NCBI GenBank assembly: GCA_029856155.1
Contig: JAHQWL010000081.1
Span: 1-64,000 of the forward strand
From: Promethearchaeia archaeon
GTDB taxonomy: Archaea; Asgardarchaeota; Lokiarchaeia; Sigyniarchaeales; SOKP01
Direction: 5' to 3'
DNA: 64,000 nt
This document shows, piece after piece, positions 11,652-21,350 of the stretch. The position numbers and the translations under genes were made by a program. Every line of letters starts with the position of its first letter. The stretch's first letter is position 1. The notes below the pieces were generated by a model. The model was not told the DNA's origin. It did not search any database and saw nothing but the letters and a program-made list of their open reading frames with translations.

Positions 11652-13043
11652 TTGTTCGATCAAGAAATTGATACTTATTTTTTTAAAAGTAATGATGAAA
11701 AAGAAGTAGAAAAATTTGTAGGTATTGAAGTATATACTACATCTAAAATTAGAGGAATTGGAGGAGAATATAAAAAGAATTTTAAGGATTTTATAGTAAA
11801 AGAAATAGATAATAATGGGAAAACACTTAGTATTAAGGAAAATTATAAATCTCACCCTTTTTCTGAAGAATTGAAGGATAGGTATACAACCTTCAATTTA
11901 ATAAAAATTAATAGAGATACGTTTGAAGCTTTAAGAAAGATAAGTAACACTTTAAAAATCCCTTATGGAATTATAAATTATTCAGGATTAAAAGATAAAT
12001 TTTCTATTTCAGTTCAAAAAATTTCAATTAAGGGAGATTATATTGATGAATTAAAAAAATTAAATTTAAAGGATATTTTCATTAGAAATATACATCCAAC
12101 TAAGAAACCTGTCAAATTAGGAAGTCATCAAGGTAATAATTTTACAGTCTTAATAAGAAATATAGAAAATAGTAAGAATTTAAGAGATAATTTAGAAAAA
12201 TTAATTAATTTTTTAAGTAATTTTGGATTCCCCAACTATTTTGGCCTTCAAAGATTTGGTAGTTATAGACCAAATTCTCATAAAGTTGGACAATATATTC
12301 TAGAAGGTAATTTTAAGAATGCATTTGAGGAATTTGTGTCGACTACTTATACTACAGAATCTGATGAATCAAAATTAGTGAGGAGAGAATTCAGAAGTGA
12401 TAGAGATTTTGAAAAAGCTTATGCAAACTTTCCAAAAAACTTAAAATATGAAAGAAATATGCTCTATTATCTGATTAAAAATCCAGAAGATTATGAGGGT
12501 ACTATTAATACATTACCCTCTGATTTAAAAAAATTATTAATTAGTTCCTTTCAATCATATATTTTTAATAAAATGCTTTCTTTAAGAGTTGAGAAAGGCT
12601 TCCCTTTATTTAAACCAATAAAAGGCGATGTAATTAGCATATTAGATGACTATAATGGAAATGTCACTAATGTGAAATACATTTATGGGGAATCTTATGA
12701 TAAATATCTGAAAAAGGCTATAGATTTAAATCGAGCGGCAATAATAATGCCTATTATTGGGAGTAATACTGATTTAGAGTTATTTCCATTAATGAAATCA
12801 CTATTCGAAGAAATTGCTAAGCGGGAAGAGATTGATAAATATATTTTATGTAGCAAATTGAACACAGAACTAGAAATGAGAGGTGCTCTTAGAACGATTA
12901 CGGCTAAACCAACTGCTCTAAAAATGTTAGAGTTTACGGAGGACGATCTTAATCCTAGAAAGAAAAAAGTCAAATTTGAATTTTCTTTACAAAAAGGAAG
13001 CTACGCTACGATGTTGATTAGAGAACTTATTGGATCACCTTAA
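11652..13043 (+). CDS. truD: tRNA pseudouridine(13) synthase TruD
   Basis: DFIVKEI, GLKDK, GNNF, FPNYFGLQRFG, KGSYATMLIREL. Confidence 0.96.
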   Translation: MFDQEIDTYFFKSNDEKEVEKFVGIEVYTTSKIRGIGGEYKKNFKDFIVKEIDNNGKTLSIKENYKSHPFSEELKDRYTTFNLIKINRDTFEALRKISNTLKIPYGIINYSGLKDKFSISVQKISIKGDYIDELKKLNLKDIFIRNIHPTKKPVKLGSHQGNNFTVLIRNIENSKNLRDNLEKLINFLSNFGFPNYFGLQRFGSYRPNSHKVGQYILEGNFKNAFEEFVSTTYTTESDESKLVRREFRSDRDFEKAYANFPKNLKYERNMLYYLIKNPEDYEGTINTLPSDLKKLLISSFQSYIFNKMLSLRVEKGFPLFKPIKGDVISILDDYNGNVTNVKYIYGESYDKYLKKAIDLNRAAIIMPIIGSNTDLELFPLMKSLFEEIAKREEIDKYILCSKLNTELEMRGALRTITAKPTALKMLEFTEDDLNPRKKKVKFEFSLQKGSYATMLIRELIGSP

Positions 13044-14517
13044 TTTCATGTTTTTTAATAGTTTCGATTCCAAAAATATCAATTACTTTTACTACCACCT
13101 TAAAATAGCCCGGTTTATCATAATAATGACCATCTGATCTTAAAGATAATTTTCTGAATTTTGGGTTTCTATAAGAATAAAACATGTTTTTAAAAATATT
13201 ATTTTTCGAATCAAAATCAATAGCCCAATAGTCAATCCAATCCGAGAAAGACTTTATATTTTCTAATATTTTCTCTGATATTAAATCTATAAATGGTATT
13301 TTATAATCTATTAATTCTACCGTAATTACATTATCATTTTGATGGATTTTAGTCTTAAATTCAGGAGTTTCTCTGACTTTTAAACTTTTTTCATTCACAT
13401 TTTCTCTCTTTAAAAATGCATCTGAGAGGGTATATTCTTCTTCATTTTTATCTATGCCTTCTATTTTAAATGGTTGAGGATTCTTATCATATTTTTTATT
13501 CCAATTTATCATATCATTACTCTGACTAAGGTTTAGAATTCTTTTTCTCGTCATATGAATCGCATGTTTGTTTGAGTCACATCCAATCCAATATCTTCCT
13601 AACTTTTCTGCTACGGCGAGTGCAGTACCTGAACCACAAAAAAAATCTGCAATGATATCATTTTCCTTTGTTGAGGATAATATTATCCTTTTAAGAAGTC
13701 TTTCTGGTTTTTGTGTGGAAAAACCTTGATATTCTGATGTATTCGCTCTTATATAGGGAACATCATTCCAAACATCTCTCGGGAAAATTCCTTCTTTCTC
13801 TACATAAACTTTTCTCGATAATTTTTTTCGATTATGGCTTCCACCTCTATAATAAAATATCCCATGCTCATCTTTCTTTAACGCGTTTTTAACCCGATTT
13901 GAGTACTCCATATAAATATTAGGATTATCGTTAAATACATAATTATCTGATTTTGAATAAAAAAGAATAGTATCGTAGGATCTAATGAAAAAACTTCTGG
14001 TTTTAACCGATGCTGCGGGATATGCCCAAATTATTTCATTCCTAAAATTTTCTATCCCAAATATCTCATCCATTATTAGTTTTATATAGTGAGAAATATG
14101 CCAATCTAGATGTACAAATATTGATCCACTAATTTTTAGCAGTTCTCTCATTAAAATAAGCCTCTCATGCAGAAAATTCAAATATGTTTCCAATCCTTCT
14201 TTCCACTTATCTTTATAAGCAATATCGTCTATATAATTACCATCTTCCCCTATTTGAATCTTAAAATTGAAGTTACTTCCCGTACCAAATGGGGGATCGA
14301 TATAAATTAGAGATATTTTATTTTTAAATTCATCTAACAATGAATTCATTACTACTTTATTATCCCCCCAAATTAGTAGATTTTGCCATTTTTGTTCCGA
14401 TTTAGAATCAATACTGATAGATGGATATATATCGAGAATATGAAGAGGTTTAGTTTCATATAATTTTGAAATACTATCCTCTCTTTCCACTTTGCCTTTC
14501 CATTTCAATTCAACCAT
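13027..14517 (-). CDS. Site-specific adenine DNA methyltransferase (beta class, N6/N4 family)
   Basis: YIDPPF motif IV precedes TQKPERLL and DFFCGSGT motif I. Confidence 0.9.
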   Translation of the reverse strand: MVELKWKGKVEREDSISKLYETKPLHILDIYPSISIDSKSEQKWQNLLIWGDNKVVMNSLLDEFKNKISLIYIDPPFGTGSNFNFKIQIGEDGNYIDDIAYKDKWKEGLETYLNFLHERLILMRELLKISGSIFVHLDWHISHYIKLIMDEIFGIENFRNEIIWAYPAASVKTRSFFIRSYDTILFYSKSDNYVFNDNPNIYMEYSNRVKNALKKDEHGIFYYRGGSHNRKKLSRKVYVEKEGIFPRDVWNDVPYIRANTSEYQGFSTQKPERLLKRIILSSTKENDIIADFFCGSGTALAVAEKLGRYWIGCDSNKHAIHMTRKRILNLSQSNDMINWNKKYDKNPQPFKIEGIDKNEEEYTLSDAFLKRENVNEKSLKVRETPEFKTKIHQNDNVITVELIDYKIPFIDLISEKILENIKSFSDWIDYWAIDFDSKNNIFKNMFYSYRNPKFRKLSLRSDGHYYDKPGYFKVVVKVIDIFGIETIKKHEIKVIQ

Positions 14518-14602
14518 AAATATAAGATAAGAAAGCAAAAATTTTATTTTTAATTTAATTTTAAAGAATATGTTCGAGAAAAAATTGAGAGTTGTAGATT
14601 AG

Positions 14603-15956: not shown

Positions 15957-16874
15957 ATGACAAATAACTATATTCAAGATTATATTAAAGCTGGGAAGGG
16001 AGCTATAGCAGCGAAAAAACTAGCGAAGAAATTAGTTAAACCAGGAGAATCTTTTTTAAAAATTGCTAATAAATGTGAAGCTGAGATAATTAAAAATGAA
16101 TGTGAATTGTCATTTCCAATCAATATGTCTTTAAATGAAATTGCTGCTCATTATAGTCCTCCAATAGATGATCAAACTATAGTTCCTGAAAAAGGGTTAT
16201 TAAAAATTGATGTTGGAGCACACTATAATGGTTTTATAGCAGATTCTGCATTTACAATAAATATTGATGAAGATCCAAAGCTTCAGAATTATATTGAAGC
16301 TGCAAAAGAAGCTCTTGAAGCTGCAATTGAATTGTTCAAACCTGGAATTAGATTATATGAAATGGGGGAAGTTATCGAGCAAAAGATTATAAATCGAGGT
16401 CTAAAACCTATAAAAAATTTAGGTGGTCATGAATTAAAACAATATGATTTACATGCAGGTCCTTTCATTCCAAACCATAAAGATATAATACATAATCAAA
16501 TACTTAAACCCGGAGATGCATATGCTTGTGAACCTTTCGTAACTTCTGGAGCAGGGAGTGTTGAAAATGGGGATCATGCTTATATATTTCGGTTTTTAAA
16601 GAGAGTAAAAAAAAATATGTCTTATGAACATTTAGGATATATGAATAAAATCGAAAGTAATTTTGGACGACTTCCCTTTACCCCTCGATGGATCGAAAAG
16701 AATAATCTTATCCCAAAAAGTAAAATTCAACGAACGCTTGAATTTTTCATGAGTAAAAAAATCATAGGTAACTATCCTATTTTAATTGAAATGCTTAAAA
16801 AACCAGTTGCTCAAGAAGAACATACAATTATTCTGGATGAAGAAGGGAAACAAATTGTTACTACAAGAGAATAA
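15957..16874 (+). CDS. map: Type II methionine aminopeptidase
   Basis: AAHY, KIDVGAH.NG.IADSAFT, NLGGH, LHAG, EPF, AQEEHT. Confidence 0.96.
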   Translation: MTNNYIQDYIKAGKGAIAAKKLAKKLVKPGESFLKIANKCEAEIIKNECELSFPINMSLNEIAAHYSPPIDDQTIVPEKGLLKIDVGAHYNGFIADSAFTINIDEDPKLQNYIEAAKEALEAAIELFKPGIRLYEMGEVIEQKIINRGLKPIKNLGGHELKQYDLHAGPFIPNHKDIIHNQILKPGDAYACEPFVTSGAGSVENGDHAYIFRFLKRVKKNMSYEHLGYMNKIESNFGRLPFTPRWIEKNNLIPKSKIQRTLEFFMSKKIIGNYPILIEMLKKPVAQEEHTIILDEEGKQIVTTRE

Positions 16875-17715
16875 TTTCAAAGAAAAAATATCTGGAGTCA
16901 TTTTATGCGCTGGAGAGGGAAAGCGACTTAAAAAATTTACAAAAAATACCCCTAAATCATTAATAAAAATAGAAAAATTAGATAATATTTCAATTCTCCA
17001 TCATAGTATTAATAATCTAATTAATTTAGAAATAAAACAAATAGGCGTGGTTATTGGTTATTTAGGAGATTCCATCCGTGAATTCATTTTATCATTGGAA
17101 AAAAAAAATCAAACCATACAAGATAAATTAATAATAATAGATACTGAAAATCAGTATAAATTTGGACCACTATATTCATTATTATCAATAATCAAAAATA
17201 AAGATTTCTTCACATTGAAAAATTACTTCTTAGTAATTCCTGGTGATACAATTTTTGATTATAACTTACTAAAAGAAGTTTTATCTATAACATCTAATAA
17301 TTTTGATTTGATTCAGGTGCATCCCTTTATTTTTTATAGGATTATAGGATTACAACCATTAAAAGAACTATATAATGTAAATAGTATAATTTCAAATGCT
17401 GAAATTGAGAATTTCGGGTCAAAAACTATTTTAAAAAAAATAACTCAAGGAAAAATTAAAAATTTACCTTTAAAAAAGGTTATTAATCAAATTATTCCGG
17501 TAACTGTATTTAATTATCATTTTATTAATGAGATGTTGAATTTGAAAGGAAAAATACCATATAAAACAGTATGGGAATCAATGAACTATATGGTTAATAA
17601 TGGAAAAAAAATCTATGCTTTTGAAATAAAAAGTAAACACCAATTTTATGATATTGATAATAAAAATGATCTTAAAAGCCTAAAAAAAAAAGAGGACAAT
17701 AGGTGCTCCGATTAA
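16786..17715 (+). CDS. Sugar-phosphate nucleotidyltransferase family protein (start uncertain)
   Basis: ILCAGEGKRL..TPKSL, PGD, YDID. Confidence 0.8.
   Translation: MKCLKNQLLKKNIQLFWMKKGNKLLLQENNFKEKISGVILCAGEGKRLKKFTKNTPKSLIKIEKLDNISILHHSINNLINLEIKQIGVVIGYLGDSIREFILSLEKKNQTIQDKLIIIDTENQYKFGPLYSLLSIIKNKDFFTLKNYFLVIPGDTIFDYNLLKEVLSITSNNFDLIQVHPFIFYRIIGLQPLKELYNVNSIISNAEIENFGSKTILKKITQGKIKNLPLKKVINQIIPVTVFNYHFINEMLNLKGKIPYKTVWESMNYMVNNGKKIYAFEIKSKHQFYDIDNKNDLKSLKKKEDNRCSD
17682..17691 (-). terminator. Poly-T (T10) terminator of the candidate ncRNA
   Basis: Run of 10 A on the + strand, 2 nt beyond the 3' strand of the closing helix. Confidence 0.6.
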
Positions 17716-18184
17716 TCCAAGTATAATTGATTCAAGGGACTTTGGCAAAATCATTATCCATTGAAGCAATTTTGTAATCAAAGCTCCTATTTACAAATTT
17801 ATACCTTTTTTCGATATAAGTGTACTCAAGTTTCAATGTCTCTGGTACCAAATATTTAAAACTCTTAATTCGACACGAATATAAGCATTAATGCCAAATT
17901 GTCTTGTAAATCAATATCGAATAAATTTAAGTATAGATGTGCGTGAAAAATAAATTCCTGTTTCAACTTGCTAATTTAGAAGCATTATACATCTTTTCCC
18001 CGCGTTAAAAAAGGAATGAATGATTAAAATCTTTGAAAGATATTAGGTTGATTTTAGATTCTTAGAGCCCGAATAAAAAAACTTTGTCGGAAATAAAATA
18101 TTAATTCATTTTAAGGTAACGATTAATTCGGTGTAAAAACCGCAGTTTTGTATCCAAATCCAATGCAAAATTTACCTATTGTCC
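17694..18184 (-). ncRNA. Candidate ~491-nt large structured ncRNA of unknown family
   Basis: Ends GGACAAUAGGU / ACCUAUUGUCC pair perfectly; at least 7 further nested helices; no ORF; TATA box upstream and T10 downstream. Confidence 0.7.
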
Positions 18185-18207
18185 AGATAAATATATGATA
18201 ATTTGAC

Positions 18208-18215
18208 TATTTAAA
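18208..18215 (-). promoter_or_regulatory. TATA box (TTTAAATA) for the candidate ncRNA
   Basis: At -31..-24 relative to the G at 18184, with A-rich BRE-like sequence upstream. Confidence 0.6.
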
Positions 18216-18327
18216 TTTTATTATTAAGGACAATAATAAAATCATTGGTATCTACGACAAAAAATTAATTATTTTTAGAATTAAATTAAAATAATATAAA
18301 TATCAGAAATTACATTATTTATAAAAT

Positions 18328-18702
18328 ATGAGTGTACCAATAAAGATTATTTTGTTCGGAATTGGCACTTTAGAAGGCAATATCATCCGTCATCTCTCTC
18401 CTCTTACCGCAGATGCTATAATTAATAAATTACCTTTCGCACTTAGAGGTAGATATAGTTTTGGTTCAAAAAATTATTGGACACTACCTGGTGTTGAAAT
18501 TTACAAAGGAACTAATCCGAAATCGATAATTAATGCAGAAAAAGGTGATATTCTTTACAACCCTAAAACCGATGAGTTTATAATAGCTATTGAAGAAATT
18601 GAAATGTCTAATAAAGTAAATAAAATTGGAAAAATAAACACTAATCTTGACCTACTGTTACAAGCAAGGAATGGATTAAACACCAAAATTTTAAAGAAAT
18701 AA
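18328..18702 (+). CDS. Cyclophilin-like fold protein
   Basis: SPLTADAIINKLPF and EKGDILYNP pattern. Confidence 0.65.
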   Translation: MSVPIKIILFGIGTLEGNIIRHLSPLTADAIINKLPFALRGRYSFGSKNYWTLPGVEIYKGTNPKSIINAEKGDILYNPKTDEFIIAIEEIEMSNKVNKIGKINTNLDLLLQARNGLNTKILKK

Positions 18703-19545: not shown

Positions 19546-19731
19546 TTATACGATATTATTATTTAAGCAATTCTTACAAACAAAAACAATTTTCCTTTTT
19601 TTCTCTGAGTTTTCATCGTAATAAATTCTTTTATAAATGAAATTCTTACAGATCTCACATATTGCCGGAGTTCGGGTTTCTTCAATTAATGGTCCTAAAT
19701 GTTCAAAATTAGCTTTAACTCTTGAATTCAT
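19546..19731 (-). CDS. Small zinc-finger protein
   Basis: CEIC...CKNC; abuts the Alba-like gene on the same strand. Confidence 0.65.
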   Translation of the reverse strand: MNSRVKANFEHLGPLIEETRTPAICEICKNFIYKRIYYDENSEKKRKIVFVCKNCLNNNIV

Positions 19732-19735
19732 CGAT

Positions 19736-20062
19736 TTAAATTGTTGATTTGGTTTGAAGAGTGATTTGAATATTAGAAATTATATCAGTCTTCTTTTTAT
19801 TAACTTTAGTATTTTTCCTGTAATAACCTCTTTGTCTATTATCAAAAAATGGTCGGCTTCCTAAAGCAACGTTTGCAATTTCAATTCTAGGGTACATGCG
19901 ATTTTTTAGGATTTCAGCTACTTCTACCGCAGTACTGATTTCTTCTCCTTCACCCTTAATTAATAGTGATTTTCTACCCCCAGAAAATGCAAAAATTGCG
20001 TCTTTAATTGATTTATCTTTATCGTGTCTGTTTCTAATTATGATTGTAGTTTCATTAACCAT
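19736..20062 (-). CDS. Divergent Alba-family nucleic-acid-binding protein
   Basis: IKGEGEEISTAVEVAEILKNR..I.NV.LGS...ISNIQITL matches Alba KARGxxISxAVDVAE...VSxIEI. Confidence 0.8.
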   Translation of the reverse strand: MVNETTIIIRNRHDKDKSIKDAIFAFSGGRKSLLIKGEGEEISTAVEVAEILKNRMYPRIEIANVALGSRPFFDNRQRGYYRKNTKVNKKKTDIISNIQITLQTKSTI

Positions 20063-20225: not shown

Positions 20226-21350
20226 TTAATTAATTAATATTAATTTTGATCTTCGATTTAACTCGTCTAAAATTTTAGAATATTCAGAACTTCTCTCTTC
20301 AAAATATTCAACAATTTTTCTTTCATTAGTATCTAGATATGAATAAAATGGAAAAATAATTTCAATTCTTTTAGAAAAATCCTCCATCAATTTATCATAC
20401 CATTCGTTTGGTTTTTTTAAAACATTTCTTACCTTTTTTGTCAATTTCTCTTTTCTATCTTCATAGTTTTCTTTCTCATTATTTCCAATTAGCTCATCCA
20501 ATTCATCATAAGCACTAGCTACGATTCTTTCTATTCTTGCTCTAAATTTAGGAATTCTATATGACTTTTTAAAAAATTCAGTGTCCCATTCATATAAAAA
20601 GCGTTCGTCCTCTTCTGCAGTTTCTTCATCATCAGTTATAATTATATCGTCCTTAGGTACTAAAATTAAACCATAATTCCGCTGTAATTGAGCTAAAGCT
20701 TTTTTACGAAGCACTTCATCAATGTATTTAACTTCCTTTAGGACTTTATCTATATTTTTATTAACTTTTTTTATAACATTTTCTGCTTTTTGTACCATTA
20801 TTTTTTCTTCAAACTCATAATTTAGCTCTATTAAGTTATAAGTGGAGGAAATTCCTAATTCTGGATCTTTAAGTCTTAATCCCGCTATACCTAAAAAGTG
20901 TGTATTAGATTTTTTTTCACAATGATCAAATATTAATCCCACCGCATATGGATTAGGGATCTGATATCCCAATTGTGTCATACAGTCGATTGGGCTATAA
21001 AAAAAACCGAAACCTGGATGTGTGTGCCACCATCCTATAATAAAATCAGTCTTATCATCTTGAATAGATCTTTCGAATACAGAAGCATCAATTTGAGCCA
21101 TATCTACATATTGTTTGTTTTCATATTTTACTCCCGCTCGATCTCCGACTACCATTGGAATTGCATCTTTTACAATTACTTTATTGTTATTTTCAATAGA
21201 TCCTATTAAAATTCCATAAACTTCACGCCACTTTTCAGGTTTTATATCATTATTGGCGTACCTTATTGCGTACCCGACAATTCTTTTATATGCTTTTAGA
21301 GTTAATAGTACTGGTGTTTTAAATGGATCAATTTTTTTGCTATTCTTCAT
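20226..21350 (-). CDS. MPN+/JAMM metalloprotease (Rpn11/Mov34-like) with long helical C-terminus
   Basis: EVYGILIG and GWWHTHPGFGFFYSPID (complete JAMM motif). Confidence 0.88.
   Translation of the reverse strand: MKNSKKIDPFKTPVLLTLKAYKRIVGYAIRYANNDIKPEKWREVYGILIGSIENNNKVIVKDAIPMVVGDRAGVKYENKQYVDMAQIDASVFERSIQDDKTDFIIGWWHTHPGFGFFYSPIDCMTQLGYQIPNPYAVGLIFDHCEKKSNTHFLGIAGLRLKDPELGISSTYNLIELNYEFEEKIMVQKAENVIKKVNKNIDKVLKEVKYIDEVLRKKALAQLQRNYGLILVPKDDIIITDDEETAEEDERFLYEWDTEFFKKSYRIPKFRARIERIVASAYDELDELIGNNEKENYEDRKEKLTKKVRNVLKKPNEWYDKLMEDFSKRIEIIFPFYSYLDTNERKIVEYFEERSSEYSKILDELNRRSKLILIN

Follow-up and report, generated by a model that had tools for sequence, protein, structure and literature searches.

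A non-coding RNA gene of about 490 bases and of no described family, at a conserved locus in one family of Promethearchaeia

To our knowledge, few large non-coding RNAs have been described in archaea besides rRNA, RNase P RNA and SRP RNA. Archaeal RNase P RNA (RF00373) and eukaryotic RNase MRP RNA are stand-alone, single-copy RNAs of 300-600 nt with paired ends and with a promoter and terminator of their own, and archaeal SRP RNA (RF01857) is an independent stable RNA that forms a long helical rod. OLE, ROOL and GOLLD are large orphan RNAs of bacteria, several hundred bases in length, lineage-restricted and ornately structured (PMC12286853). The stretch of DNA analysed here (the window) comprises 64,000 nucleotides of a Promethearchaeia archaeon (GenBank assembly GCA_029856155.1, contig JAHQWL010000081.1, positions 1 to 64,000 of the forward strand). 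Its minus strand carries, from 18184 to 17694, a real non-coding RNA gene of about 490 bases, which is present family-wide at the same locus. This RNA shares the above features of RNase P and MRP RNA, including a terminal helix (P1), and resembles SRP RNA in its long helical rod and, as far as its transcription can be predicted, in being an independent stable RNA. It differs from OLE, ROOL and GOLLD in being archaeal, in having conserved structure at its ends only and in matching no Rfam family. The features of the locus are as follows.

18216-18226, minus strand: BRE-like element, A-rich, adjoining the TATA box on its upstream side
18208-18215, minus strand: TATA box, 23 nt upstream of the first G
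17694-18184, minus strand: RNA gene, 491 nt, about 28-30% GC, without a conserved ORF
18174-18184, minus strand: 5' strand of P1, pairing probability 0.97, with compensatory changes
18160-18166, minus strand: (G)CAUUGG motif, shortly after P1, without a consistent pairing partner
18129-18142, minus strand: small 4-bp hairpin, 85% paired in the genus, pairing probability 0.76
17792-18128, minus strand: AU-rich variable interior, with lineage-specific hairpins
17838-17846, minus strand: semi-conserved ACnnGAGAC motif, in 64 of 101 homologues
17705-17791, minus strand: irregular 3' hairpin that stacks on P1; the P1 5' sequence (AAUAG) is repeated at the start of its 5' strand
17694-17704, minus strand: 3' strand of P1, with compensatory changes matching the 5' strand
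17682-17691, minus strand: U10 tract, archaeal-type terminator
16786-17715, plus strand: convergent gene of the sugar-phosphate nucleotidyltransferase family (PF00483), overlapping the RNA 3' end
18328-18702, plus strand: divergent cyclophilin-like gene (weak PF04126 match), synteny anchor
19736-20062, minus strand: Alba paralogue, family-restricted, bearing a long arm rich in Arg, Asn and Lys; candidate partner

An earlier note on this DNA had proposed an independently transcribed multi-domain RNA of unknown family. Our data support the part of that proposal concerning an RNA gene of no described family, its independent transcription being predicted from sequence: the promoter spacing is fixed, the end helix covaries, a U-tract follows, the gene is single-copy, syntenic and under purifying selection, and it matches neither Rfam models nor RNase P or SRP RNA. 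The detailed multi-domain fold is not supported, given the poor pairing across homologues, the ensemble probabilities and the folding z-scores described below. The region had also been described as an ORF-free gap, which needs correction since the convergent nucleotidyltransferase ORF extends to 17715, across the U-tract and into the final 22 nt of the RNA. The RNA itself has little coding capacity, the longest Met-initiated ORF having a median of 18 aa over 101 homologues.

Homologues were collected by BLAST, by a covariance model of the 3' domain and by synteny with the cyclophilin-like gene, the last along the lines suggested in the earlier note for related Asgard genomes. This yielded 101 distinct sequences of 343-632 nt from 11 genera of a single Promethearchaeia (Loki) family, nearly always at the same locus. 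Found by synteny or similarity, they were delimited by requiring a helix, the motif and a U-rich tail, which inflates the presence counts of these three features and leaves the types of base pair in P1 unaffected. The RNA is near-universal in genomes of the family, with one copy in each and a copy number of one in the present genome. Named records with homologues belong to Promethearchaeota and include Loki_b31 and MAGs of the SOKP01 project. One record titled Hermodarchaeota (L146) bears the RNA on a contig that matches a genome of the Promethearchaeia family.

In the searched genomes the RNA was limited to this one family, of 135 species. A pattern combining promoter and 5' end was present in 50 of 68 family genomes, as against 2 of 232 others, both degenerate matches. 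A model of the 5' end scored 28-54 bits over its full length in 23 of 24 family genomes, and matches elsewhere were partial and did not exceed 22 bits; overall, two models and one pattern left a clean gap between scores inside and outside the family. In the syntenic regions of sister families the neighbouring genes were differently flanked and no such gene-free element was present, two closed genomes of a sister family gave no match, and the RNA was not found in the other Asgard families searched. Pattern matches in viral and bacterial sequences were at chance level only. A diverged counterpart may exist outside the family. A decayed-looking copy was seen in a twelfth genus: the copy of genus g27 (L272:2755-3201, minus strand) has an intact promoter and 5' motif, an imperfect end helix, no U-tract and another downstream gene, and is apparently decaying.

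Sequence constraint extends over the whole gene. The ends of the RNA are 0.8 identical across the genus, as compared to 0.48 at four-fold degenerate sites of the neighbouring gene. The interior is 0.86 identical in a close relative, where four-fold sites are 0.50 identical, and falls near background across the genus. Thus both ends and interior are constrained, although the interior turns over with distance.

The TATA box reported by the earlier note at 18215-18208 (-31 to -24) and the T10 run at 17691-17682 are both present. The spacing from TATA box to first base was 23 nt in 72 homologues, 22 nt in 28 and 24 nt in one, within an extraction that covered the range of 22-24 nt (101 of 101). 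TAATAA and the two A residues preceding the TATA box are invariant among 27 members of the genus, and the A residues of the BRE-like element are retained family-wide. The 20 nt past P1 hold 9-18 T in all 101 homologues, a U-rich tail having been a criterion of extraction. A perfect 10-bp end helix occurs at only 7 of the 3,221 TATA-plus-G positions of the genome, two of the seven being the RNA locus itself, the only locus with a long U-tract behind it (14-15 T per 20 nt, against 6-9 at the others).

The perfect 11-bp inverted pair (17694-17704 with 18174-18184) described in the earlier note is indeed present and forms P1. Analysis of the homologous loci confirmed covariation in P1, where five pair types occur at position 4 among 101 homologues (C-G 78, U-G 14, U-A 6, G-C 2 and A-U 1) and two-sided changes occur also at positions 1, 2, 6 and 9. 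In four clades the 5' end is shifted or lengthened, each time with a matching extension of the 3' end. Since U-G pairs in P1 are valid on the minus strand only, they support an RNA read from that strand.

Shortly after P1 lies CAUUGG, of which the C, A, U and G are invariant in 33 diverse members. No shared partner for it was detected within the RNA, pairing with a 3' UUCAAUG holding in a few lineages only. At least six genomes have lost the motif or carry an altered form of it. Members of 357-391 nt (L028, L114, L116 and L287) have the promoter, the end helix and the U-tract, and are devoid of the CAUUGG segment. The absence of CAUUGG from a few genomes and the seemingly decayed copy of one genus indicate that the RNA is not strictly essential.

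The closing helix of the 3' hairpin is paired in 96-97% within the genus and in 86-88% over 80 members, with ensemble probabilities of 0.58-0.96. Pair counts within the genus gave 94.9% paired and covariation no higher than in shuffles, so support for this hairpin comes from conservation and slid controls and not from covariation. The copy of the P1 sequence at its start (ATAG in the DNA) was found in 81 of 101 homologues as against 37 in a control window, and this copy would permit strand exchange. For the whole RNA the folding z-score was -2.5 when read from the minus strand, as against -1.3 from the plus strand; without the end helix it was -0.9, both here and as the median over 34 homologues, hardly better than shuffled sequences. 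All ten stems listed in the earlier note are complementary in this sequence, but the inner ones are paired in just 17-66% across 80 homologues. The stems within 17800-17935 and 17810-17921 have probabilities of 0.91-0.94 here and are poorly conserved (17-48%), whereas the stems 18004-18120, 17935-17994 and 17771-17797 and the 5' hairpin reach 0.00-0.05. The second long-range stem (17708-17717/18121-18131) has an ensemble probability of 0.00 and competes with the 3' hairpin, and the suggested CUGCG/CGCGG pseudoknot is paired in 30% of the 80 homologues. The picture of a highly structured multi-domain RNA is therefore overstated: P1 and the 3' hairpin are the sole firm structure, and CAUUGG is the conserved sequence motif.

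The neighbourhood offers one candidate protein partner. The Alba paralogue is the third of three Alba genes in the genome; it is present in 117 of 125 family genomes, where alone strong full-length matches occur, and lies within about 1.5 kb of the RNA in most genomes. It is 50-96% identical across the family, with just weak partial matches outside, and is closer to ordinary archaeal Alba than to Rpp20/25. The Alba-family proteins Rpp20 and Rpp25 bind RNase P/MRP RNA (PMC2896528). The paralogue is flanked on the same strand by genes for a JAB/MPN-domain protein (20226-21350, minus) and a 61-aa four-cysteine zinc finger (19546-19731, minus). Elsewhere in the window, an ORF at 13027-14538 (minus), a probable DNA methyltransferase with a DPPF motif recognised by eye, is inserted in the orientation opposite to that of truD and aspS.

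We tentatively favour, as the best single reading, a scaffold RNA with closed ends within a protein complex, i.e. a housekeeping ribonucleoprotein. The stand-alone gene would be read from its TATA/BRE promoter to the U-tract. As covariation and conservation show, the ends zip into a helix of 9-16 bp, onto which the 3' hairpin of 60-100 nt stacks, and this would give a nuclease-resistant rod. The adjoining CAUUGG, by its conservation, may serve as a recognition site, and the AU-rich interior may provide flexible, fast-evolving arms. Such an RNA would bind proteins rather than act as a catalyst, and would serve as the scaffold of the particle. This reading draws on the small conserved core and the length-variable interior (343-632 nt) devoid of catalytic-core motifs, and on the fixed promoter, the covarying P1 with G-U pairs valid on the minus strand only, the U-tract and the single copy per genome. 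As for the partner, its shared family range and nearness to the RNA make the Alba paralogue the first candidate, although that range may mirror family-level divergence, as for other neighbours. Against a scaffold stand the GC content, which is at genome level (SRP RNAs of relatives have 39-57%), and the few genomes devoid of CAUUGG.

Other explanations were weighed against the scaffold. A trans-acting regulatory RNA, stabilised by its end helix and pairing through a CAUUGG seed with mRNA, the tRNA CCA end or pre-rRNA, appears unlikely. It would account for a conserved motif without a consistent internal partner, and UGG is complementary to tRNA CCA, but the seed is only six bases long with variable flanks. 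Moreover, over 15 matched genomes no common site was found in 16S rRNA or its leader, with two 6-nt sites in a single 23S rRNA, and the complement of CAUUGG is depleted in the context of start codons (7% vs 13%), so that U3-like pairing to 16S rRNA or its leader and start-codon pairing both found no support. Two side observations concern the rRNA loci: tRNA-Ala genes 70-130 nt past the 16S gene (L304-L308) carry 25-30 nt of additional sequence ahead of the anticodon arm, which is probably a non-canonical intron, and one 16S gene (L322, genome G080) begins like a bacterial 16S, likely through contamination. We regard as decidedly improbable a decoy akin to 6S or 7SK RNA, whose double-stranded rod would hold RNA polymerase or a transcription factor and switch via the AAUAG copy. 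In most members two strands are able to pair with the same 3' segment, and the rod is long and irregular; however, a central bubble of fixed geometry is missing, the probability of the alternative pairing is 0.00 here and Rfam gives no match.

The paired ends and the nearby Alba gene also recall a degenerate second RNase P RNA, i.e. an MRP-like paralogue, as does the 79-85% complementarity of UUCCGA and UCGGAG, which stand in P4-like order. The better-supported 3' hairpin, however, already takes up the 3' strand of this pairing, and one clade alters the 5' strand without compensation, which together with the lack of CR-I and of profile similarity to the genome's own RNase P RNA makes such a paralogue very unlikely. 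It is similarly hard to credit that the locus is no functional RNA but a fixed MITE, what is left of an intron, or a DNA element whose ends are inverted. The inverted ends are flanked by a 3-bp direct repeat in this genome, the inner structure is weak, and GAGACA/UGUCC recalls P7 of a group I intron. Yet, in place of the dispersed copies with target-site duplications that would mark a MITE, there is one syntenic copy whose flanking repeat is not conserved, and purifying selection, strand-specific G-U pairs, promoter and terminator all speak for a gene. Nothing follows the P7-like strand, at which the RNA ends and which covaries with the 5' end instead; with no Rfam match, a group I intron was rejected. 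The least probable reading is that the RNA serves the convergent nucleotidyltransferase gene as cis-antisense RNA or as terminator insulator. The 22-nt overlap with the 3' end of that gene would suit it, but RNA and motifs persist in one genus where the gene is not adjacent, and 450 nt separate the conserved 5' motif from the overlap.

A search of Rfam with the window and 20 homologous loci returned chance matches only, with no confident hit to RNase P, SRP or any other family. The RNase P motif CR-I, the SRP54-binding helix 8 motif and the T-loop were each found in 0 of 101 homologues, in keeping with the earlier statement that RNase P, SRP and tRNA signatures are absent. Unlike RNase P and MRP RNA, the RNA is AU-rich, its P4-like pairing does not covary and it matches no covariance model; the sole match of the RNase P model in the genome is the RNase P RNA on contig C47 (L001:1110-1432, minus strand), which has an atypical CR-I, GAGGAACCUC, where GAGGAAAGUCC is usual. 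Family profiles showed no similarity to the RNase P RNA of the genome or to SRP RNA. A divergent SRP RNA was tempting since this assembly is devoid of SRP RNA, but close relatives with the RNA have a separate SRP gene, the SRP model finds other loci, and a likeness of the 5' ends seen by eye was not significant. SRP RNAs of the family (L036, L037, L040 and L041) score 43-84 bits, where the Rfam cut-off is 96.5, and on visual inspection appear to be without the archaeal end pairing of helix 1. Eukaryotic 7SL likewise has no helix 1 end pairing.

Several further classes were rejected. For tmRNA, besides the missing T-loop, there is no conserved ORF, the tail after P1 is variable and SmpB was not found in a genome that is 97% complete. 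Ro60 (TROVE) was not found in the assembly, which speaks against a Y RNA. A box C/D guide RNA is contradicted by a C box in 1 of 101 homologues, by CUGA at about chance level and by a rejected K-turn. A template RNA of retron or telomerase type was discarded since no RVT_1 reverse transcriptase was found in the assembly. The literature searched, subscription journals excluded, holds no description of the RNA.

A single-copy RNA of this size across an Asgard family of 135 species suggests that relatives of the eukaryotes have a housekeeping function not yet annotated, and with exact ends, 101 sequences, a conserved core and one candidate partner it is directly testable. In its workings the RNA appears closest to stable RNAs of stand-alone genes with paired ends. 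Scaffold RNAs, yeast telomerase RNA among them, follow a pattern of a small conserved core with variable arms. By analogy, fungal telomerase RNA and 7SK may be the nearest in evolutionary pattern, having a small core, fast-evolving arms of variable length, closed ends and a U-rich 3' end; the present RNA differs from them in that no reverse transcriptase and no template repeat were found and no sequence similarity was shown. It is a rather unlikely, speculative extension that Asgard archaea have a scaffold ribonucleoprotein of long non-coding RNA type, unlike any known from prokaryotes and with an Alba-family protein of its own as partner, which would parallel eukaryotic 7SK, telomerase RNA and MRP and possibly have diverged counterparts in other Asgard lineages. 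Compared with the classes tested, the RNA is a member of none and constitutes a new family of a known general kind.
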